A stretch of DNA of 27,642 nucleotides from a virus. Taxonomy: Duplodnaviria; Caudoviricetes. A program made the position numbers and the translations under genes. This document shows, one piece after another, positions 2,664 to 20,569 of the stretch. Position 1 is the first letter of the stretch. The number at the start of each line of letters is the position of its first letter. Below the pieces are notes generated by a model. That model made no database searches and was not told the DNA's origin. It worked only from the letters and a program-made list of their open reading frames with translations. The DNA lies in IMG/VR virus record IMGVR_UViG_3300020045_005617, positions 1 to 27,642 of that record; one strand, written 5' to 3'.

Positions 2664-3068
2664 ATGAACTCAATTTCAAAAACACAACGGACTTTTACTT
2701 TCGTTATTCTAACAACAATCGCGGCATTACTTTTTTTCACAATTAAGGCGATCGCTCAGGATAATTCTTTGCCACCATCTCAGACTGAGTGGACAGCATT
2801 TTTTGATTCGCTGAAGGGTTTGGGCGGCATGAAGGCTGCTGCAATTATTTTAGTAGCCGTTCAGGGCATTATGTTGGTTGTTCGTCAATTCATCCAAGGT
2901 AAATGGAAGCTTTTAATTGTTAGTGCGTTGACTTTTGTCGCTGCAATTATCGGTGGTTTCGCTTCTGGACAACCTATCATGTCGGCCTTGTTATCGGGTG
3001 GGGCATTATTGAGTTTACAAGTATTCATTAGCCAGATTGTTTTACAATTTCAGAAGAAAGAAGTCTAA
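2664..3068 (+). CDS. Multi-pass membrane protein, holin-like
   Basis: AAGGAG RBS, 3-4 hydrophobic segments, basic C-terminus, adjacent to the endolysin. Confidence 0.6.
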   Translation: MNSISKTQRTFTFVILTTIAALLFFTIKAIAQDNSLPPSQTEWTAFFDSLKGLGGMKAAAIILVAVQGIMLVVRQFIQGKWKLLIVSALTFVAAIIGGFASGQPIMSALLSGGALLSLQVFISQIVLQFQKKEV

Positions 3069-3287
3069 ATGACTGTCGCTGCTTTTTTTACAGGTCTATT
3101 TGCAATCTTTGAAGCTGTCCCGATTATTCGGGATGGCTTCAGGGCAGCGCTTGCGAGTTATTATCAAAAAAAGGTTGATGCCGCCGTGATTCTTCGGAGT
3201 CATGGGGTAGAGGAGTTACAAAATGCAAAGACACCAATTGAAGTTCAGCAAGCTCTTGGCAATATTGTTCGTGGTCGCGCTTTGTAG
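3069..3287 (+). CDS. Membrane-anchored protein, i-spanin-like
   Basis: N-terminal hydrophobic segment then a helical region; overlaps the lipoprotein gene. Confidence 0.45.
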   Translation: MTVAAFFTGLFAIFEAVPIIRDGFRAALASYYQKKVDAAVILRSHGVEELQNAKTPIEVQQALGNIVRGRAL

Positions 3288-3597: not shown

Positions 3598-4063
3598 TCG
3601 TAAACGTGGGAAACTCGCAAAGAGCCGTGGAGACATATTCGAGACTGAGATTAATCTTTCTTGCTATATAAATGGCGCTTCACCAATTCAAATTCCTTCT
3701 GGCTGTAAATGGCGAAAGACACCAACAGGCGTTCGAGCTGTTCCAGAAAAAACGCCTTTTGATTTTGTGATTGCCCTTCATGGTAAATGCGCTTTCTTTG
3801 ACGCAAAAAGCACCGACGCAGTGGGTTTTGGATTTTCTCTTATTAAGCCCCACCAAGTGGCGAAACTTTTAGAACTAGAAAGACAGGGATTTAATAGTGG
3901 ATACTTAATCAAGTTCACAAAGTTTGACAGCCAGATAGCATTTTTTACATCATCGCAATTGATAAAACTTAAACCTCGTGAGAGCCTTAAATTAGAAGAT
4001 GGCGCGATTCATTTCGGGACAGATCTAAAAAGTTCATTATTACGCATCTTCGTGAAAGGCTAA
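3584..4063 (+). CDS. RecU-like Holliday junction resolvase (PD-(D/E)xK)
   Basis: RGDIFETEI...PFDF...FFDAKST...IKPHQ matches the RecU motif series. Confidence 0.75.
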   Translation: MKYANRKRGKLAKSRGDIFETEINLSCYINGASPIQIPSGCKWRKTPTGVRAVPEKTPFDFVIALHGKCAFFDAKSTDAVGFGFSLIKPHQVAKLLELERQGFNSGYLIKFTKFDSQIAFFTSSQLIKLKPRESLKLEDGAIHFGTDLKSSLLRIFVKG

Positions 4064-4466: not shown

Positions 4467-4814
4467 ATGCCTAATCCAAATAGAATGAAACCATTATTCA
4501 ACGGCGGATCACAAAGTGCGAGCGGAGACTTTTCGTCTGACCCGATCGACACAAGTGGTCTTGATAGACTTTTTATTGCATTAAGGACTGCTGATGCGAT
4601 GACTGGTGTTTTAAAAATCCAAGCATCTCTTACGCCACTGGATCTTACCTCTTGGGGTGATCTTGAAGACGTTGATCAATCGGTCGATGGTGTGAAAACT
4701 ATTTACAATTGGAACCTCGCCGAACTTGGTATGAGATTTATAAGAATAAATTTTACTCATTCGGGTGGCACTGGTGTCTTTGCTGGTGACTACAACGAAG
4801 TTGATGACCGATAA
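4467..4814 (+). CDS. Small beta-rich structural protein heading the fibre cluster
   Basis: AAGGGG RBS; alternating beta patterns (GVLKIQAS, RFIRINFTH). Confidence 0.6.
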   Translation: MPNPNRMKPLFNGGSQSASGDFSSDPIDTSGLDRLFIALRTADAMTGVLKIQASLTPLDLTSWGDLEDVDQSVDGVKTIYNWNLAELGMRFIRINFTHSGGTGVFAGDYNEVDDR

Positions 4815-8190: not shown

Positions 8191-8619
8191 ATGAGTGATA
8201 AAATAAGGTTTCTTAAAACATTAAAAGAGCGAGCAGAAAAAAAAGAGGGTCAATTCAAACCTATTGATTTCCATTTTCTTAATCCAATTAAGCAATCGTC
8301 GTCTGACTCAGAAATTCTTTCTATTAAACCATCCTCTAAAAAAGAAGACAGTCAACCCGTGGAGCGAATTAAGGCCGAGAAAATATTTAATCCAGACCTA
8401 TTGCCAGACCATAAATTGTTAAAGAAACAAAGAGTAAATAAGATACGAGTTAACAAATTAGAAATGAATTTAAGCTCAATTGAAAATAAATTTTCTCTTT
8501 TGAATAGTAAAATAAATAACCACAGAAACGATAATAGAGTTGCTACCAAAGATAAAGTTAGGGAGAGAAAAGTACCCGCAGATCATAAACCAGACGACAA
8601 GAAGGATAAAAAACCATGA
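8191..8619 (+). CDS. Lys-rich hypothetical protein with coiled coil
   Basis: 142 aa, ATGA overlap with the next gene. Confidence 0.55.
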   Translation: MSDKIRFLKTLKERAEKKEGQFKPIDFHFLNPIKQSSSDSEILSIKPSSKKEDSQPVERIKAEKIFNPDLLPDHKLLKKQRVNKIRVNKLEMNLSSIENKFSLLNSKINNHRNDNRVATKDKVRERKVPADHKPDDKKDKKP

Positions 8620-11159
8620 GTGGAATAACAAAATTTTGGCCAATTAGAGGCGCGGGTGGTGCAGGTAGTTTTCTTCGGTTAGATGGAACGAATGGACCAA
8701 TGACAGGACTATTCGGGTTAGCTGGGCCAGCGGTTGCAGCAAATCAACCAGTAACTCTGGCGCAATTGCAAGCGGCTGCTCTAGGAACTCCGCTCGGGTC
8801 TGTCCACGTAGTTTCAACGGTTCTCGATGGAAATATAGCTCTCACTGGTCCAGCTACGATCGATGGAGTCGTCGTTCCAAATGGCGAAAAGGTTCTTTTA
8901 GAGCATCAGACAGATCCGCTTGAAAATAGAATTTATGTTGTTAATACTGGTGGGGCTTGGACAGAAGCTGCGAGTTTGCCTGATGGATTCGATGCCCACG
9001 GTGCTTATGTTTCTGTAGTTGCTGGAGCAACTTATGCTTCTGAGTTTAGAATTTGTATTAGCGACCCTGCCATTGTCGGAACAGACGGACTGACTTGGAA
9101 CTTTCAAGCTGGTAATACTTATTTTGATGATGGTGTTACTACCATTTTAAATACAAATATATTTTCAATTCGTAACGGCGGGATCACGGACATCCACGTC
9201 AACGCTGCTGCTGCGATTGCTGGGACTAAAATTAGTCCAAACTTCGGTGCGCAGAACGTAGTCACAACCGGAGACGGAACTTTCCGTCATGTAAACATTG
9301 ATGGGACTGGAACGAATGGCTGGGTAAACCTACACGGTCAAACTAGCCCACCATCTAATGCGACAGCAATAGGTGACATTCGAATCTACGCAAACACTTC
9401 TGGATTCGGTGGATTCGGTGCGAAAACTGGAGGAGGACAGGCGGTTCAATTCAACATCGACCAAGTGAACACAGGCAATGCTGAAATTATTATTCAGGAT
9501 GAAACGTCGATCATAATGGCGAACGTCCCTGCGTCTGGGTTCGTAACTTCTGACGGTGCTACGCTTTCAAGTCAAGCATCGATAGACGCGTCACTCGATC
9601 TTTCTGGGATTGTACCTTATGGAAATGGTGGAACAAATGCTTCTACTGTTTGGACACCAGGGTCTAATATATTTGCCGGGGCAACTACATTCGCCGAAGA
9701 TAATGCAAACTGGTTTTATGACAATGCAACAAATCGAGTTGGTATCAGATCTGCCGCCGCTCCTCAATCCGCTTTAACTTTAGGAGCATTCCCTGCTTTC
9801 GGGACTCTATATCCAACTTTCGACGAGGCTGGCTTTGGTATAAGTTCATCAACGGCTGCGACTCCAACACAAATGATTATTGAAAACACAGTTGGGTTGG
9901 GATCAGCGAGGGGATCAAGCATAGCACTAGTTTCAAGAGCTGCTGCTTCGGTAACTCAAGGCGGTGATCGACTGGGGTCATTCCAATTTGGCGGTAATCC
10001 TTTGGCTGGATCATTGGTCAGAATGGGCGCAATAATTCAAGCGGATGCGGCGGCACTATGGACACCAACAAGTTGTGGAACGCATTTAAAATTTTTAACA
10101 ACGAATTTAGGAACGACAACTCCAGTCGAACACATGCGACTTTTCCCTGGTGGTAACCTGACAGTAGGTAACATAGTCACGTCTGCTTTCGGAACATTCA
10201 ACGTCTCCCCACTATCTACTAGTTCACAAGCTATGTATGTACGATCACTAGCGGGACAAACCGGAGACATGTACGTTGGCGCTGCGAGCACTGGGGTGAT
10301 GAACTTCAGAGTTTTGGCATCGGGTGAGGTCAGAGCGCCATCATTACTAATTAATGTCACGACTGGTGCTGGTTTTGTTGAATTGACAAACCAAACAGTA
10401 AACCCAGGCGGGATCATCGGTGCAAGCAGGGTATTCTCTGACACTTCTGGATTTTTAGGAATAGCTGGGTCATCTGGTTTCTCTGGTTTGTTCGATATGT
10501 CTGGATTAACCGCATCGAGAACTTATGAGTTCCAGGATGCCTCACAGATTTTAGGTAATGTTCCAACGATTCCAGGGTTCGTAAAATCATCCGGTACAAC
10601 TTTAACGTCAACATCATTTATTGATGCGGCTACAGACATTCAAGGAATTTTAGATACCACCAATGGAGGTACTGGACTATCCAGCATAATTGGTGATGCG
10701 GTGTTCTTTGCATCTTCTGGTTTCTTGTTTGCTCAAGATCCAACATTCACATATATCGATGGCACAAACACGTTATCGGCTACGAATATTACGGCTACCG
10801 CTAATTTAACCACTAACCATTTATTATCGGCTGGAACAAATCCAACGATTGTTAGAGGTGCTGGGTCTGGACCAACTTCGGTTGTTAGTGTTTCCGGTGA
10901 AGATATGGCTGGAACGGTAACGGTAGCGACTGCGGGTGGTCCATCTACCAACTCGATAATCTTTACACTTACTTTCGGAACCGCTTACGGCGCTGCACCA
11001 AAGGTTGTGTTTTCTCCTAGAAATAGAATCACGGCTGGGGTTAGCGCGAACCAAGCACCATTTGCCACGACAAGTGCGACTACTTTTACAATGACGTCAG
11101 GGTCGGTCGCTTTAACAAATAACGCTACCTTCGTTTGGGACTACCACGTTATTGGGTAA
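8616..11159 (+). CDS. Large fibre-like virion protein 2 (847 aa)
   Basis: NIALTGPATIDGV...KVLLEHQTDPLENRIYVV..GAWT fibre module; GGTN/GGTG shaft motifs; C-terminal TLTFGTAYGAAPKVVFSP tip-like domain. Confidence 0.8.
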   Translation: MSGITKFWPIRGAGGAGSFLRLDGTNGPMTGLFGLAGPAVAANQPVTLAQLQAAALGTPLGSVHVVSTVLDGNIALTGPATIDGVVVPNGEKVLLEHQTDPLENRIYVVNTGGAWTEAASLPDGFDAHGAYVSVVAGATYASEFRICISDPAIVGTDGLTWNFQAGNTYFDDGVTTILNTNIFSIRNGGITDIHVNAAAAIAGTKISPNFGAQNVVTTGDGTFRHVNIDGTGTNGWVNLHGQTSPPSNATAIGDIRIYANTSGFGGFGAKTGGGQAVQFNIDQVNTGNAEIIIQDETSIIMANVPASGFVTSDGATLSSQASIDASLDLSGIVPYGNGGTNASTVWTPGSNIFAGATTFAEDNANWFYDNATNRVGIRSAAAPQSALTLGAFPAFGTLYPTFDEAGFGISSSTAATPTQMIIENTVGLGSARGSSIALVSRAAASVTQGGDRLGSFQFGGNPLAGSLVRMGAIIQADAAALWTPTSCGTHLKFLTTNLGTTTPVEHMRLFPGGNLTVGNIVTSAFGTFNVSPLSTSSQAMYVRSLAGQTGDMYVGAASTGVMNFRVLASGEVRAPSLLINVTTGAGFVELTNQTVNPGGIIGASRVFSDTSGFLGIAGSSGFSGLFDMSGLTASRTYEFQDASQILGNVPTIPGFVKSSGTTLTSTSFIDAATDIQGILDTTNGGTGLSSIIGDAVFFASSGFLFAQDPTFTYIDGTNTLSATNITATANLTTNHLLSAGTNPTIVRGAGSGPTSVVSVSGEDMAGTVTVATAGGPSTNSIIFTLTFGTAYGAAPKVVFSPRNRITAGVSANQAPFATTSATTFTMTSGSVALTNNATFVWDYHVIG

Positions 11160-12093: not shown

Positions 12094-12384
12094 ATGAGAA
12101 TAGCAAAAGGCGTTATCGGCAAGTTGTCAGATCTTCATAAGGACAAGTTTTTATATAATGAGCCGAGTATCGTTAAGAAAGTCGACTACACAAATAGTTA
12201 TCAAAACATAAAGCCGTTGACCGAGTGGGAGTTAATGAGATTCAAGGCGAGAAAGCTAGAAAAACATAATAGTAAATTCGGGAATAAAAGGCACTACTAC
12301 AGATCACAAAAACAGTGCAAAGCTATTATCGAAAAACATGAGGCTCAAAATGGGGCACAGTCATCATCAGGGATTAAATCATAA
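12094..12384 (+). CDS. Basic hypothetical protein
   Basis: 96 aa, 1 nt after the previous stop; converges on and overlaps the minus-strand operon. Confidence 0.5.
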   Translation: MRIAKGVIGKLSDLHKDKFLYNEPSIVKKVDYTNSYQNIKPLTEWELMRFKARKLEKHNSKFGNKRHYYRSQKQCKAIIEKHEAQNGAQSSSGIKS

Positions 12385-12779
12385 GGATACGGTGGAGGTT
12401 CATTTTCTGAGTAGGCTTTTGGTGCGAGCTTTATATCCGATGGGGGTATCGGTGAAAAATCTGCGTCATCTTCAAATGCTTTTGGGTCTGCTTTTAAGAC
12501 TTTGTAATCGATTCTTTTTCGTTCTATGGATTCTATCGCTGGCTCTAGCTTTGGTGGGCTTATTATCAGTGTCGACGTTAATGTTGGGCTATCTTCTTTC
12601 TTAAACTCACCCATGTAGTCAGCGTGATAATCTCGCTCATGACGGTTCATCCATAAAGAATAATTTTTATTTCGAGGCCATTCGCCAGCGGGGCATGAAC
12701 ACTTAAAGACGTAGATATATCCTGAATCCTTTTTAACCGCGACAATACCGCCCGATGATCTACAAAAGTGGCAGCTCAC
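12345..12779 (-). CDS. Zn-finger protein (CxxC...CxC) with acidic/Pro-rich tail
   Basis: SCHFCRSSG...FKCSCPAG; start overlaps the upstream stop; ends DDDCAPF. Confidence 0.6.
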   Translation of the reverse strand: MSCHFCRSSGGIVAVKKDSGYIYVFKCSCPAGEWPRNKNYSLWMNRHERDYHADYMGEFKKEDSPTLTSTLIISPPKLEPAIESIERKRIDYKVLKADPKAFEDDADFSPIPPSDIKLAPKAYSENEPPPYPYDLIPDDDCAPF

Positions 12780-13072: not shown

Positions 13073-13287
13073 GACGCTAATCTCACAAAGATGGCCTCTA
13101 AAATTAAGGTGCGTTCGTCGTTAGTTAATTGGGTGATGCCATCAACCCATGTTGTGATGCTAACGCGGTCTGTTTCGCCAGCCATCTTTCTAAAGAACTT
13201 ATCGGTATAATATTGAACGACTTCGTTTGTGTCATGAATGAAGCTTATTGTGCTTGGGTGTAGGTTCATTTTACGCCTCGCTCCCAA
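13069..13287 (-). CDS. Hypothetical protein
   Basis: Coupled in the operon; start may be the ATG near 13269. Confidence 0.55.
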   Translation of the reverse strand: MGARRKMNLHPSTISFIHDTNEVVQYYTDKFFRKMAGETDRVSITTWVDGITQLTNDERTLILEAIFVRLAS

Positions 13288-13516
13288 CTTGATTTAAAAA
13301 ATAATCTAATTGTAGAAAGGCATCGCGGATTTGATTGCCAAGTGTTGTCGCATTGTAGTGTCCATATTGAAGATCATCTTTGTTAACTAAATGGTAAATG
13401 CCATAATCAATCATCTGAGTAAACGCGCTGCTTTTTGATAGTCGTGATGTAACATAAATGCATGATTTATTTTCTTTTAAAATTTTTATTTGTTTACTTG
13501 TGAGCTTCATTTTCAT
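13271..13516 (-). CDS. Hypothetical protein (81 aa, shorter than ORF-track call)
   Basis: AAAGGG RBS before ATG 13516 and a promoter-like sequence just upstream. Confidence 0.55.
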   Translation of the reverse strand: MKMKLTSKQIKILKENKSCIYVTSRLSKSSAFTQMIDYGIYHLVNKDDLQYGHYNATTLGNQIRDAFLQLDYFLNQVGSEA

Positions 13517-13551
13517 TGTTCCCTTTACATTTAAAAAGTATTTACTCAACC

Positions 13552-13580
13552 ATTGTAACACGATGCGTATATAAATGGAA
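13552..13580 (-). promoter_or_regulatory. Sigma70-like promoter with extended -10
   Basis: TTCCAT-N17-TACAAT with TGn extension on the minus strand. Confidence 0.45.
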
Positions 13581-13706
13581 GTTAAATAAACCCATGTTTG
13601 ACCTTCGTCTACGATGCAATTTAAGCATGCCTTCTGTTTTACTAGCATTACCTCGTGTTCCTAAAACAAATCAATCCTGGGCTAATTGTGGAAGGCGTTG
13701 GTTAAA

Positions 13707-14885
13707 TTAGATCAGTTGAGCTTTCTGCCCGGTATACTTTTCCCACCTGGCTACAATCACGTCGCAGTAGTGTGGGTCTAATTCCATTAATCTTGCGCTT
13801 CTATTTTCTGTTTCTGCGCCGATAAGCGTAGCCCCCGAGCCGCCGAAAAGGTCTAGAACAATTCCATTTTTAGGACATGAATTTCTAATTGTTCTTTTAC
13901 TTAATTCAACTGGTTTCTGTGTCGGGTGAAATTCATTTTTAGACTCCCTTTTTTCATCCCAAACGGATACTTCATTTGTTGGTCCATCCCAAAATGGAGA
14001 TTGGCCTTTCTTGTAAGCATACAAGCATGGTTCGTGTTTCTGCTTGTACTGCGCGCCAATTGCCCCAAATTGTGCCATGTTCTTATTCCAGATTAACCAA
14101 CTACGAATCTCATACCCATTATCTTGAAGCACTTGAAGCGATTTAGTTGCAGCAAACCACAAGTAAAGTGCCGCTTTAGGTTTCGAAAAATTAAACATCA
14201 TCGGTACAGAATCATTATAAATCAATGTACTATCATCATTGGCTAGTTTTTCCCTTCGGATACCTTTATCCGCATGACCGCCATCATAGCTAACGCCATA
14301 AGGCGGGTCAGTAAACACAAGGTCTGCTAATTCATAACGCATTGGCTTCTCAACGGCATCAATCGAAGTAGAGTCACCACACATCAGCCGATGATTCCCA
14401 AGTTGATAAATGTCGCCGAGCTTTGTTCTTGGCTCAACGCGCTCCGGCACATCGTCCTCGTCGCACATGGGTATGACGGTTGGCTCTAATACTAGATCAG
14501 GGATACCTAAATTCTCCAGATCGAAGTCATCTCCAAGGTTAGGGATTTCAGTATTGATCTTTGATCGATCTAGCTCGGCCTGTAGAGCAACTGCGTTATC
14601 CGCTACCACGTGGCTGTACTCCATCGCTGGGGAATCGAAGTCTTGAAAGTCTACGGCGATTGTTTCAGATCCAGCTAACTTCGCGGCCATCAATGTTCCG
14701 TGACCAGTAACTATAAACCCCGATTGATTTGAAATGATGATTGGTTTTCTTTGACCTTGGTAATTTAATATTTTAGCAAACTGCTCTAACTGCTTCGGTG
14801 AATGATCATTCGGGTTCTTTGGGTTCGGTATAATCTTTGGATCATTAATTTCTAAAAGATTGCTGTAGCTACATTTGATTTTCAT
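13707..14885 (-). CDS. ParB/Srx-like N-terminal domain fused to N6A/N4C DNA methyltransferase (beta order)
   Basis: PNPKNPNDH...IVTGHGTLMAAK ParB-like region; DPPY catalytic motif, HPTQKP and VLDLFGGSG SAM-binding motif. Confidence 0.9.
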   Translation of the reverse strand: MKIKCSYSNLLEINDPKIIPNPKNPNDHSPKQLEQFAKILNYQGQRKPIIISNQSGFIVTGHGTLMAAKLAGSETIAVDFQDFDSPAMEYSHVVADNAVALQAELDRSKINTEIPNLGDDFDLENLGIPDLVLEPTVIPMCDEDDVPERVEPRTKLGDIYQLGNHRLMCGDSTSIDAVEKPMRYELADLVFTDPPYGVSYDGGHADKGIRREKLANDDSTLIYNDSVPMMFNFSKPKAALYLWFAATKSLQVLQDNGYEIRSWLIWNKNMAQFGAIGAQYKQKHEPCLYAYKKGQSPFWDGPTNEVSVWDEKRESKNEFHPTQKPVELSKRTIRNSCPKNGIVLDLFGGSGATLIGAETENRSARLMELDPHYCDVIVARWEKYTGQKAQLI

Positions 14886-15030
14886 TTGGTCATAAGATTA
14901 TTAATTAAGAATTAAGTCAAAGAATCTTTCGGAAGTTATTATCATAACTATTTTCGGAAGAAGTAGGATTAATTAAACAAATGATAAATAGAAACTATGT
15001 AACCAGAGAGAACGGAGCGATGGCCAAGAG

Positions 15031-15460
15031 GTTTCTTATTCCCTGATTCTAAAAGTTTATAAAAATAAACTTCCCCTGTATTCGAATTAACGTTCTTACT
15101 CGTCCGAGTTTTATCAGCACTATGGCGTACTGGTTGAACTCGCTATCTCATCTTGTAACCACTTAAAAAGTGTACTATGATGATTCTCAGAGGCTTGGGT
15201 GCGATTGCGCGTTAACGCTTTCCGAGTGGAGGACGAGTTCATGTAAACCGTAATCTCCAGGCACTGCCTCTAAACTTTGTAACCGTCGGTCACATCGCTT
15301 CAGCCCATGCAATGATTAAGCCGAGTGGGTCGCCTAATCTGTGATCCAGAATCGTATTGATTCTTTTGCTTCCCGAGGAAGCCATTTCACCCGATGCCCG
15401 ATGAAACTTTCTGAGCTGCATGTCCCAGTCGAATCAGAATAGATCAAGATCGAAAGAAAC
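15031..15460 (-). ncRNA. Candidate large structured ncRNA (~430 nt), family unknown
   Basis: No ORF of 60 aa or more; 17-bp interrupted terminal helix (15031-15049 with 15431-15460) enclosing several hairpins; a G-U pair favours the minus strand. Confidence 0.6.
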
Positions 15461-15529
15461 TAAATAAAGCATTATTTTTTGAGTACATTGTCTAATAATA
15501 ACGTAATGAAACGTCGCGTCGTGGCGGGT

Positions 15530-15575
15530 AGCATCAAAATAAACGTTTACAAAGTCAAAGTTTTGTCATAGTCAT
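15530..15575. promoter_or_regulatory. Overlapping divergent promoter-like region
   Basis: Minus strand TTGACT(15558-15553)-N17-GATGCT; plus strand TTTACA at 15546 upstream of the exonuclease RBS. The -10 boxes are weak. Confidence 0.35.
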
Positions 15576-15594
15576 TCCTTATCGAAAGGAAATT

Positions 15595-16512
15595 ATGAAA
15601 AATCAAACATACAGATTAGTAGAACTAGAGCAAAATAGTCCGGCATGGCTAGAATTCAGAAAAGGCAAGATCGGGGGGTCGGACATTCCGATCATCGCTG
15701 AAGTCGATGGTGCTTATAAATCTAGGGCAGACCTCCTCCACGAAAAGATCACAGGTGAATCAAAGCCTGTTTCCGAGTTCACGCAGAAGCTCTTTCAAGA
15801 GGGTCACGACTGGGAGCCCATCATTCGCGATGAAGTGAATCATAAGTATGAGAAGCATTTTGTCCCGACCGTAGTTCAGTCAGTCGAATACCCGCACTTC
15901 TTTACATCACTAGATGGGTTCGACGAAGTCGATGGATCAATCCTAGAAGTCAAGACGACTCAGACCGATAAGATCACCGATCTAATCAAGACGGGAATAG
16001 TTCCTAAAAATTGGTACGCACAAGTTCAATGGCAGCTCTTCATCACGAATTCAACTATGGCGATGGTTGCCGCATTAGATATTAGAACAAAACATCTTCA
16101 CGATCCAATTAGGATTAATCGCGATGAAGTTTATATTGTTCTTTTGAAGGAAGCAGCTCAGAAATTCTACGAGGAAATGAGCACAGCGGTTTCCCCATAT
16201 CAACAACTTGAATCAATTGAGATGAGAACAATCGCATCGACGAAAGTTAATATAAAAGAATTCCAAAAGATGATCGATGATGCCGAAGACAAAATTAAAT
16301 TGATCGCGGAAGATCTTTTAAGGAAATATAAAGCGACAAAGATAGTAGGATGCGGAGTTCAAATTGAAACAATCAACCGTCAAGGGAATGTGGACTATTC
16401 AAAAATAGGAGTATTAAAAACGATAGATTTAGAAAAGTATCGTAAGAAAGGTTCGACTTACGTTAAAATAACCGAACTAAAACCATCGAAAGGAAAAATA
16501 GAAAATGAATAA
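15595..16512 (+). CDS. YqaJ-like viral recombinase exonuclease (lambda-Exo family)
   Basis: LEQNSPAWLEFRKGKIGGSD, GHDWEP, SLDG, ILEVKT, WYAQVQWQL motifs. Confidence 0.9.
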   Translation: MKNQTYRLVELEQNSPAWLEFRKGKIGGSDIPIIAEVDGAYKSRADLLHEKITGESKPVSEFTQKLFQEGHDWEPIIRDEVNHKYEKHFVPTVVQSVEYPHFFTSLDGFDEVDGSILEVKTTQTDKITDLIKTGIVPKNWYAQVQWQLFITNSTMAMVAALDIRTKHLHDPIRINRDEVYIVLLKEAAQKFYEEMSTAVSPYQQLESIEMRTIASTKVNIKEFQKMIDDAEDKIKLIAEDLLRKYKATKIVGCGVQIETINRQGNVDYSKIGVLKTIDLEKYRKKGSTYVKITELKPSKGKIENE

Positions 16513-17347
16513 TCAGCAGGTATCAATTATAGAACAGGTAATGATTAAGGGAGACTTATCAGTCTTAGACCCAGGGCAAAGGGTACAATATTATAATGCA
16601 GTTTGCGACTCAGTAGGATTAAATCCTTTAACGAAACCATTCGACTATATCGTACTAGGTGGAAAGTTAGTCCTTTACGCGAATAAAGGAGCTGGTGAGC
16701 AGCTTAGACAGCGACACGGTATTTCGTTAAAGATAACCGATAAACAAAAGATCGACGACGTTTATGTAGTTACCGCCGAGGCAGTAGGAAAAGATGGGCG
16801 GGTTGACTCCGCTACAGGAGCCGTATCCGTCGCAGGATTAAAGGGTGAGCAGTTAGCTAACGCTTTTATGAAAACAGAAACAAAAGCGAAACGTCGAGTC
16901 ACGCTTTCAATATGTGGATTAAATATGCTCGACGAAACTGAAGTAGAAAACATAGGAGAAAAACAGAATGAAAAAAAGCAAATCGCAAACGCAAGTACCA
17001 CCAAGCTTAGTGTCGATACACCAGGGGCTTTACAAAGCGGCCAAACAGGTGGAGCAAGACCTGAGAGTAGCAATCACGTTATCGACGAACCAGAAACAGC
17101 AGCAGATACTACTAACAACCTATCTAACGGTGACACAAATCCATGTAGCGCTGGCAGCACTATTGGTAGTTACAGAATCCCGTTTGGAAACAACAAAGGC
17201 CAAACCCTCATCGAAGCGGGTTACGAAGCGGTTTGTAGTACCTACGACTGGCTTAAAGGTGAGGAAGAAAAAGGTAAACCACTCAAGGGCGCTGGCCTAG
17301 AGTTTATCAAGCAAGCGGAACTTTGTTTTCCGCATATTAAGAATTAA
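16505..17347 (+). CDS. Single-strand annealing protein (RecT/Bet-like)
   Basis: GLNPLTKPF...ANAFMKTETKAKRRVTLSICGL; paired with YqaJ; C-terminal IPFGNNKGQTL motif. Confidence 0.75.
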   Translation: MNNQQVSIIEQVMIKGDLSVLDPGQRVQYYNAVCDSVGLNPLTKPFDYIVLGGKLVLYANKGAGEQLRQRHGISLKITDKQKIDDVYVVTAEAVGKDGRVDSATGAVSVAGLKGEQLANAFMKTETKAKRRVTLSICGLNMLDETEVENIGEKQNEKKQIANASTTKLSVDTPGALQSGQTGGARPESSNHVIDEPETAADTTNNLSNGDTNPCSAGSTIGSYRIPFGNNKGQTLIEAGYEAVCSTYDWLKGEEEKGKPLKGAGLEFIKQAELCFPHIKN

Positions 17348-17940: not shown

Positions 17941-18138
17941 ATGAAGATAGTCGCAGCTGCTACTGCGTCCGAATACTTCGCGAGTATGAACGGGTATGAC
18001 TACACAGGCGATCCAATCAGTAATGAGATGGCATTCTACGTTGAAGAGATGGTAGAAAAGCTAGGCAAGAAATTCGAGCAAGATACTCCGACGCAAGAGG
18101 ATTGCTTTAACTACCTTTTGAAGATTAAGAAAAAATGA
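17941..18138 (+). CDS. Hypothetical protein
   Basis: 65 aa, ATGA overlap with the next gene. Confidence 0.55.
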   Translation: MKIVAAATASEYFASMNGYDYTGDPISNEMAFYVEEMVEKLGKKFEQDTPTQEDCFNYLLKIKKK

Positions 18139-18494
18139 CCCAAGATTCAGACCAAGAAAAGATCGCGGCAATAGTTGGGGGCACAAAGCATGATGGGGAA
18201 AAAGTACGGCTTGACCTGTTATCGTCGTTATGGATTGAAGGCGTTGGTAGTGTCCTTACATTTGGGTCAAAGAAATATTCAGCTCACAATTGGAGAAAAG
18301 GCATTGTCTTATCGAGACTGCTCGGGGCTTGTTTGCGGCACGTGTTCGCATTCCTTAAAGGAGAAGACAAAGATCCTGAGACTGGGCTCTCACACCTTAG
18401 TCATGCGTCTTGCTGTCTTATGTTTGCATCGGAATTATATGAAACAAGACCTGACCTAGATGACCGTTACAAAGGAGAAACAAATGAAGCATGA
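18135..18494 (+). CDS. dATP/dGTP diphosphohydrolase-like (DUF5664) protein
   Basis: GTKHDGEKVRLDLL...VLTFGSKKYSAHNWRKG...DPETGLSHLSHA...DDR. Confidence 0.85.
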   Translation: MTQDSDQEKIAAIVGGTKHDGEKVRLDLLSSLWIEGVGSVLTFGSKKYSAHNWRKGIVLSRLLGACLRHVFAFLKGEDKDPETGLSHLSHASCCLMFASELYETRPDLDDRYKGETNEA

Positions 18495-19786: not shown

Positions 19787-19870
19787 ATATGCCTCCCCAT
19801 GGTTATATAATATTTTAATATTAAATAATTGCTATTTATAAAACGTTGACTCGGGTAGAATAATAATTGA

Positions 19871-20569
19871 ATGCTTAATCCGAAATCGCCTATCCTGGTA
19901 ATTTCAGATTTACAAATTCCGTTCGAACACCGTGATGCCCTCAGCTTTTGTAAATATCTGAAGCGTCATTATAATATCAGCGATGAAAATGTTCTCTGCG
20001 TAGGGGATGAGTTAGACCAGCTCAATGCCTCTATGTATCCGAAGAACCCTAACGTTCCGCTATCAGCAGTCTCAGAAATAGCTTTAAGCCGCGATCGACT
20101 AAGGGAGTGGGCAAACGTATTCCCTCAAATGAAACTGGCCATAAGCAATCATGGAATCAGGTGGGTTAAGAAAGCTACCGCAGCCGAGATTCCAGAAACG
20201 GTTCTTCGGTCTTATCAACAGATATTTGAAACACCACCGGAATGGATTTGGAGAAATGAATGGCGGTTCACTAGTCTCAAGCATCCCTTTCGCATGGTAC
20301 ACGGCCAGGGTTACTCAGGCAAAGATGGTCATCGCAACGCCGCGCTCGACGCGAACATCAGCACAATTATCGGTCACCTCCACTCCCACGCAGCCGTAGA
20401 CTACCTGGAACTTAATGGGGGTAAACAAATGTGGGCCGTAAATACTGGCTGCATGATCGACATAGAGGCCTATGCATTTGAATATGAACGTCTCAATAGA
20501 GCGAAACCGATACTAGGCGTCACAGTTATTTTTAAAGAAGGTAAGATGCCAGTTTTTCATCCGTTGTGA
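19871..20569 (+). CDS. Calcineurin-like metallophosphoesterase
   Basis: ISDLQIP, GDELD, SNH, VHG and GHLH motifs. Confidence 0.85.
   Translation: MLNPKSPILVISDLQIPFEHRDALSFCKYLKRHYNISDENVLCVGDELDQLNASMYPKNPNVPLSAVSEIALSRDRLREWANVFPQMKLAISNHGIRWVKKATAAEIPETVLRSYQQIFETPPEWIWRNEWRFTSLKHPFRMVHGQGYSGKDGHRNAALDANISTIIGHLHSHAAVDYLELNGGKQMWAVNTGCMIDIEAYAFEYERLNRAKPILGVTVIFKEGKMPVFHPL

Follow-up and report, generated by a model that had tools for sequence, protein, structure and literature searches.

The largest ORF-free gap of the window (the complete virus contig of 27,642 bases analysed here, a tailed-phage fragment with a tail gene at one end and the major capsid gene at the other) is a stretch of 709 nt (14886-15594) that has an even chance of being a ColE1-like RNA-primed replication origin, with the minus strand giving rise to a folded primer RNA of about 400-450 nt. 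The stretch likely contains a real structured element, and this element is probably part of a replication origin; an origin of the RNA-primer type would allow the genome to be copied without an initiator protein of the phage's own. Such an origin is the simplest account of the data, since a conserved, structured and strand-asymmetric non-coding element takes the place of replication genes and lies, once, beside an RNase H gene. The observations behind it are the position of the element in the replication slot, the lack of a detectable initiator, loader, primase, helicase or polymerase gene, the equal size of the elements in the Rep-less phages, the RNase H neighbour in one lineage and the structure of the element in one pair of sister phages.

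The next largest gap of the window measures 348 nt, in line with the first-pass annotation of this DNA, which had described the region as the only large ORF-free gap; judged from the gene order, the part absent from the window should comprise head-tail genes only. The 709-nt gap is bounded by a minus-strand gene for a ParB-like domain fused to a DNA methyltransferase (13707-14885; PHROGs E 4e-105), which is the first gene downstream of the element, and by a plus-strand gene for a YqaJ/RecE-like exonuclease (15595-16512; PHROGs E 3e-40), which forms one border of the slot. The following plus-strand ORF (16505-17347) had no library match and probably encodes a single-strand annealing protein, a role assigned solely by its position behind the exonuclease, where the sister phages have RecT-/ERF-like genes. 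A Cys-rich, zinc-finger-like ORF on the minus strand (12345-12779) ends in an acidic C-terminal tip that we take to be SSB-like; it had no library or Atlas match except for a weak Q-like PHROG in the sister G010 (E 0.008) and occurs family-wide (e.g. L236:3007-3327 and L232:2563-2865). This ORF is the last gene of the Rep-loader operon in the sisters G004 and G009 and is retained in the Rep-less phages; its use as a marker of RNA-origin phages was rejected, as the Rep-bearing G004 and G009 also have it. A further minus-strand ORF of 125 aa (13271-13648) displays a weak winged-helix likeness (TM about 0.5, low-confidence model) and is the sole candidate for a hidden small initiator; no homologue was present in the sisters examined. 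GC skew was discarded as an origin locator (it tracks the coding strand and points to no origin). The window also carries dATP/dGTP pyrophosphohydrolase-like and metallophosphoesterase genes (18135-18494 and 19871-20569) and, between tail-fibre-like genes, a lysine-rich ORF of 142 aa without PHROGs match (8191-8619).

Exonuclease, head protease, terminase and Fis-like genes served as queries to gather the phage family, the terminases of the sister phages being 61-71% identical to that of the window. The slot, taken as the stretch next to the exonuclease, zinc-finger and Fis-like genes, lay off the fetched DNA in four (L230, L238, L253, L255) of the 15 family members included in the terminase tree (together with five outgroup sequences); the remaining 11 revealed three kinds of content. 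The slot of G004 and G009 contains a single operon made up of initiator, loader-like and zinc-finger ORFs, the G009 initiator sharing 38% identity with a protein of L138 that PHROGs calls a replication initiation protein; in G008, the slot is filled by a primase (PHROGs E 8e-52). The slot is non-coding in the other eight (window, G001, G002, G006, G007, L258, G010, L250); in G006, the non-coding DNA lies directly upstream of the zinc-finger ORF and thus replaces initiator and loader. All five large Rep-less records have gaps of similar size (709, 737, 739, 731 and 697 nt in the window, G001, G002, G006 and G010, respectively), the largest gaps of the sisters with protein modules being 355 (G004), 294 (G009) and 402 nt (G008). 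The more distant exonuclease relatives G003, G005 and L138 have initiators, and gaps of 624 and 475 nt are also found in G003 and G005. In G001/G002, the 3' end of the element coincides with the start of an RNase H gene (Pfam E 1e-26); such a gene was found in no other fetched locus, including the window. Depending on the lineage, the gene downstream of the element encodes a methyltransferase, RNase H, zinc finger, QueD or Fis-like HTH protein, and in G010 and L250 the orientation of the element is reversed relative to the neighbouring genes.

In the terminase tree, the lineages with the non-coding element were dispersed across the basal part of the family, the initiator/primase phages forming one nested clade (support 97/96); the tree topology suggests that the non-coding element is ancestral and was later replaced. 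Because the protein-module phages form a single nested clade, the module exchange rests on one or two independent events, and the terminase tree may not track the replication module. With so few swaps, the coincidence of element and slot might be fortuitous, and the element might instead resemble the large accessory RNAs GOLLD and ROOL, serving as a scaffold or decoy with no part in replication; the phages would then copy their DNA through recombination, by means of exonuclease, annealing protein and resolvase together with host enzymes. This reading is unlikely: it agrees with the size and branched fold of the element and with the presence of recombination genes in all lineages, but these genes are found in the Rep-bearing sisters too, the element sits exactly where G004 and G009 have Rep and loader, it is without Rfam match, and ARAGORN revealed no tRNA genes near it, unlike the situation in many GOLLD and ROOL RNAs.

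Initiator queries gave no match in the window, G001, G002, G006, G007 and G008, and PHROGs detected no initiator, primase, helicase, polymerase, ParA or integrase among 42 ORFs of the window, 45 of G006, 51 of G001/G002 and 15 early G010 ORFs (these scans covered the ORFs other than known head genes and some antisense ORFs that are likely spurious). No ParA gene thus adjoins the element in the window, the ParB-like domain of which is fused to the methyltransferase. Of the control genes, PHROGs recovered the L138 initiator and the G008 primase but not the G009 Rep, so that a divergent initiator might escape detection. Searches with a Rep profile of four sequences and with queries for loader, primase and helicase reached at best E 0.29 in the Rep-less records (3268 six-frame segments from 13 records searched), with Rep profile matches confined to Rep-bearing records that are, or resemble, the training sequences. 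Concerning completeness, G006 has direct terminal repeats and was rated 100% complete, and G001 (85%) and G002 (91%) overlap and jointly span the gene order; G010 (35.6 kb) shows no end overlap and may lack a piece, and G007, L258, L250 and G008 are fragments like the window.

The nine sequence segments cited in the first-pass annotation were all found where it had placed them, and the core of the element is indeed richer in GC than its surroundings (15091-15440, 47%; flanks, 27-33%; genome-wide, 42%). Within the ends originally proposed (15031-15460), the minus strand folded considerably better than its shuffled versions (z -4.78; plus strand -2.25). Folding strength was dependent on the chosen boundaries: the core gave z -2.66 on the minus and -1.06 on the plus strand, the whole gap -1.88 and -2.10, respectively, so that the z-score of -4.78 is in part inflated by ends that had been selected because they pair. 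Likewise, the composition-adjusted 430-nt frame ranked 2 of 128 with these ends and 5-18 of 128 when shifted, and 150-nt tiles at the element were unexceptional (z -1.6 to -1.8, compared with values down to -3.7 elsewhere among 151 tiles of the first 22.6 kb). Tiles with z of about -3 or below were located at 3001-3150, 4651-4800, 9151-9300 and 19801-19950.

The z-scores of about -2 with unbiased ends, the unremarkable tiles and the chance level of most of the short pairings first proposed would also fit an ordinary divergent promoter/operator region that folds by chance. We consider this quite improbable in view of the 350-nt GC-richer core within AT-rich flanks, the uniform gaps of 700-740 nt confined to the Rep-less sisters, the conserved structure in G010/L250 (see below) and the excess of perfect inverted repeats of at least 8 bp (4 observed versus 1.0 expected, p 0.013), which include the segment 15231-15241. 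The number of 6-bp inverted repeats (p 0.11) and the two 8-nt direct repeats that had been pointed out (p 0.33) did not exceed chance. Nor is there an indication of a decayed gene in the gap: blastx against 7934 ORFs and further proteins yielded nothing at E<1.

According to the predicted ensemble, the local hairpins of the minus strand are well determined (pairing probabilities 0.77-1.0). The GC-richer core (15091-15440), predicted to be the body of the primer RNA, has a 5' domain (15301-15418), in which a closing helix (15412-15418/15301-15307; 0.71) surrounds four hairpins (15384-15407, 15368-15382, 15348-15364 and 15314-15339; 0.91-1.0). Three of these hairpins had been recognised before and stand, with 15314-15339 as an additional fourth one; the CATGCA/TGCATG helix supposed to enclose them reached a probability of 0.09 and gives way to the overlapping register of the closing helix. 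The 5' domain is followed by a hairpin at 15278-15294 (0.97), a central domain (15187-15273) that is closed by 15266-15273/15187-15194 (0.77-0.92) and holds the segment 15231-15241, and two-segment hairpins at 15148-15183 (0.87-0.88) and 15105-15142 (0.97-1.0). The 5' arm of the latter can alternatively pair with 15234-15241 (8-bp inverted repeat I25), and the 8-nt segment 15098-15105 is a perfect complement of 15231-15238 (inverted repeat I24; duplex -12.4 kcal/mol) and a candidate pseudoknot or switch helix. Both complementarities of 15231-15241 to outside partners, on which the first-pass annotation had based its alternative folds, are therefore present, but the pairing with 15098-15105 is not formed in the nested ensemble. 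Other long-range details did not hold: the end helix reached a probability of 0.34 for the outer 6 bp and about 0 for its two inner segments, and the CTCAGA/TCTGAG pseudoknot 0.02, as both of its arms lie inside two better helices and represent an alternative pairing rather than an added pseudoknot. Downstream of the core hairpins, the minus strand contains the only G4 run of the core (15073-15076) and then an AT-rich hairpin; this region (15051-15076) is a candidate for the hybrid start and the switch from RNA to DNA. The proposal of a structured non-coding RNA of about 430 nt is retained as a large minus-strand element on account of folding and sister equivalents, which probably needs the whole 709-nt gap; given the similar gaps of the sisters, 14886-15594 likely corresponds to the minimal origin with its promoters. 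As to the roles suggested at first, the gene context lends real support to a replication primer and none to a ribozyme or scaffold.

Transcription signals are less evident. The TTGACT hexamer interpreted as a promoter is located on the minus strand at 15553-15558, but no -10 element behind it passed either of two scans; indeed, no minus-strand sense promoter of the window passed them, and the promoter type of the host may differ from the scanned consensus. On the plus strand, a weak promoter-like site (15289-15316; 8/12, TG before the second hexamer, match quality at chance level) would drive an antisense RNA over the four hairpins of the 5' domain, a candidate antisense-RNA target, with no terminator found behind it; a second site antisense to the core (15153-15181; 9/12) was the only one found versus 2.5 expected by chance. 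Neither a sense nor an antisense terminator was found in the window. These findings bear on the notion of a cis-acting leader (antiterminator or attenuator) of the downstream early operon: the element heads a transcription unit in every lineage and possesses a switchable segment with two partners, but with no sense terminator in the window, a different downstream gene in each lineage and the missing replication genes left unexplained, a leader function is distinctly unlikely.

The lack of a convincing promoter in the window would suit a replication origin that acts as DNA, in which extruded hairpins recruit the host initiator, primase, PriA or a small phage winged-helix protein without any primer RNA. 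An origin of this type, which we regard as improbable, shares the evidence from the slot and the Rep absence, and could draw on the weakly winged-helix-like ORF 13271-13648 as well as on the pair of roughly 25-bp inverted repeats, themselves containing short direct repeats, that flank the G006 element (L236:3331-3410 and 3991-4040) and are possible protein-binding sites. Against it, the winged-helix-like ORF is missing from the sisters, RNase H adjoins the element in G001/G002, changes to G-U pairs are kept on one strand in G006/G007 and G010/L250, and the multi-branched domains of the element exceed known priming hairpins in size. Plasmid motifs that may work as single-stranded DNA, mentioned in PMC5737381, speak in its favor.

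The RNA nature of the element is most apparent in G010 and L250, whose elements are homologous (56-58% identity, E 1e-25 to 1e-27) and fold at z -4.3 and -5.1, respectively. Their consensus structure comprises 96 pairs, 26 of which are changed on both sides (two sequences only). From the pairs predicted for G010, 43 of 73 changed pairs were kept in L250 (28.9 expected; 0 of 5000 draws); the reverse comparison was not significant (35 of 78 versus 31.2 expected, p 0.2), and the corresponding tests of the antisense strand gave p 0.03 (nominally positive) and 0.31. The conserved structured RNA of about 430 nt (L289:540-985 and L250:800-1262, both plus strand), which has no Rfam match and likely contains a pseudoknot (two crossing helices, columns 106-221 and 207-262 of alignment A10), is a better-supported new RNA class than the element of the window. 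Between G006 and G007, the strand towards the zinc-finger gene kept 5 of 5 changed pairs, compared with 1 of 9 for the opposite strand (6 of 10 and 2 of 4 in the reverse comparison; none significant); the G006 element folds better on the opposite strand (-4.34 versus -2.30), which also has a strong terminator towards which a promoter-like site is directed. G001 and G002 share 66-79% identity in the 5' 300 nt of the element and 94-100% on both sides of it; the divergent part contains nine two-sided changes, an opposite-strand terminator and, on each strand, compensated hairpins. Such local divergence is the pattern of incompatibility regions in RNA replicons (PMC3035462). Opposite-strand terminators are thus present in G001, G002 and G006 and absent in G010 and the window. 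The G002 core alone folded no better than its shuffled versions (z -0.43), and the predicted strand was G-skewed in all five cores (+0.09 to +0.24).

Homology of the window's element to those of the other lineages was not established by cross-lineage alignment, k-mer tests or the covariance model R1: local alignments gave p 0.1-0.5 in all six same-strand pairs, three of the six global same-strand alignments gave z 2.1-2.8, no more than a hint, and in the window a G010/L250 nhmmer search found no match and R1 (5' half) a best E of 0.21. GenBank phages, PLSDB and the sister loci yielded no close homologue of the element in the window, so that the covariation results pertain to the sister elements; GenBank phages contained no close relative of the phage family either. 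The first-pass assumption of a class outside Rfam was borne out, with no window match at E<=1 (best E 4.8 in a narrow scan) and no covariance-model match of the element to GOLLD, ROOL, ARRPOF, introns, RNase P or others; the sister elements had no Rfam match. Blastn of the element against PLSDB retrieved short chance matches only, without homology to the conserved RNA I region of MRB plasmids as far as PLSDB includes them, and no sequence or covariance-model similarity to ColE1-family origins was detected. A supposed resemblance to tmRNA was rejected by ARAGORN and Rfam; a scan with the tmRNA motif led to 17 loci that lacked any tRNA, tmRNA or Rfam match and were read as coding chance matches. 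A 17-nt motif common to the window and G001/G002 was treated as a chance match as well: of its 39 loci, two were G001/G002 themselves and the other 37 all overlapped an ORF of at least 80 aa. Among its carriers are five near-identical viral loci (L104, L111, L113, L115 and L128, around position 2000) with the motif in a short antisense ORF; this region could be non-coding and is, as far as checked, unrelated to the phage family.

The working of an RNA-primer origin can be modelled, in all its steps, by analogy with ColE1 biology. Transcription of the minus strand by host RNA polymerase would start in the AT-rich flank around 15460-15560, and the RNA would fold during synthesis, with the segment 15231-15241 switching its partner from 15135-15142 to 15098-15105 to reach the active fold. 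The 3' part of the RNA would remain hybridised to the template at the G run near 15075, where RNase H (host-encoded for the window, phage-encoded in G001/G002) would cut the hybrid and host DNA polymerase I would extend the primer; the host restart primosome would then load on the displaced strand, perhaps aided by the acidic tail of the zinc-finger protein. A plus-strand antisense RNA over the four-hairpin 5' domain might set the copy number or exclude related phages. Several points stand against an RNA-primer origin: the window is without close homologue, sense promoter, antisense terminator and RNase H gene, and homology across the lineages is unproven; to these add the z of -0.43 in G002, the strand preference of G006, the reverse covariation result in G010/L250, the one or two swaps and the winged-helix-like ORF.

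RNA-initiated replication has been described for ColE1, MRB plasmids (PMC3035462) and some mycobacteriophage prophages (PMC7157519). The phage elements resemble the ColE1 RNA II/RNA I system in the lack of a detectable initiator protein, the non-coding structured origin of several hundred bases, the predicted alternative folds, the RNase H link in G001/G002 and, in G001/G002 and G006, a terminator on the opposite strand close to the 5' part; they differ in having no sequence match to plasmids or Rfam and in residing in a tailed phage, with promoters, antisense RNA and priming as putative features. MRB origins consist of an ORF-free region of about 500 bp with an RNA II of about 465 nt without consensus promoter and a small antisense RNA with terminator, and plasmid compatibility is set by divergence in the RNA overlap (PMC3035462). 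The ORF-free origin and the divergence of G001/G002 at the corresponding position are in accordance with this arrangement; on the other hand, the MRB replicons are Vibrionaceae plasmids and not phages, no sequence similarity was found, and the window and G010 have no antisense terminator. In extrachromosomal mycobacteriophage prophages, an RNA-expressing region of 400-500 bp replaces repA beside parABS, and lytic growth stays normal upon deletion of the non-RepA origin (PMC7157519). Here, too, a phage group has an RNA region as an alternative to a Rep gene, but no ParA, integrase or other replication gene was detected and no GenBank phage matched. ARRPOF, GEBRO and PAGEV are structured motifs of 223-349 nt in or near plasmid replication regions, and ARRPOF is located in a gene-free region that suffices for Rep-independent replication (PMC5737381). 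A structured motif is tied to the replication region in both cases, the element of the window being longer, phage-borne and without Rfam match (the supplements of PMC5737381 could hold motifs outside Rfam). The GOLLD and ROOL RNAs, often near tRNAs (PMC5737381), are large, branched and phage-borne like the window's element, which differs from them by its position tied to the replication slot and the lack of neighbouring tRNAs and of an Rfam match. The literature searched, which included few subscription papers, contained no report of these phages, of a phage devoid of any protein module for initiation or of a phage with an RNA primer as sole route of initiation; the element would work like a known RNA-based replicon, belongs by sequence to no catalogued family and occurs in a setting not found in that literature.

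Taken further, and more tentatively than the origin itself, the data might reflect a tailed-phage family in which a folded primer RNA is the ancestral and sole start of replication, lytic replication included, using host RNase H, Pol I and primosome; the cassette would be swappable with a Rep-loader or primase module and would have diversified into several new large RNA classes, with antisense exclusion between sisters. If true, RNA and protein modules that swap in one slot would provide a natural comparison of two replication strategies, phage genomes seemingly without replication genes would be explained, and several unrelated-looking primer RNAs would bear on how often RNA-primed initiation arose. 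At least 237 protein clusters are related to the head protease (E<=1e-40), many on contigs of at least 30 kb, by which the survey of the slot is extendable about tenfold.

Some features of the sister phages deserve separate mention. Directly behind the G010 element lies a cluster of QueD, QueE, GTP cyclohydrolase, tRNA-ribosyltransferase-like and glycosyltransferase genes (L289:989-5737), which suggests 7-deazaguanine DNA modification; G010 was binned with a genome labelled Acidimicrobiaceae, perhaps erroneously. The portal gene of G006 is split into frames of 110 and 707 aa (L286:10792-13325), by either an assembly error or a frameshift. The surroundings of the G008 primase (L257:420-600 and 2850-3110) show, upstream of it, two interleaved long inverted repeats of attenuator-like appearance and, downstream of it, an AT-rich stretch with short, iteron-like repeats.
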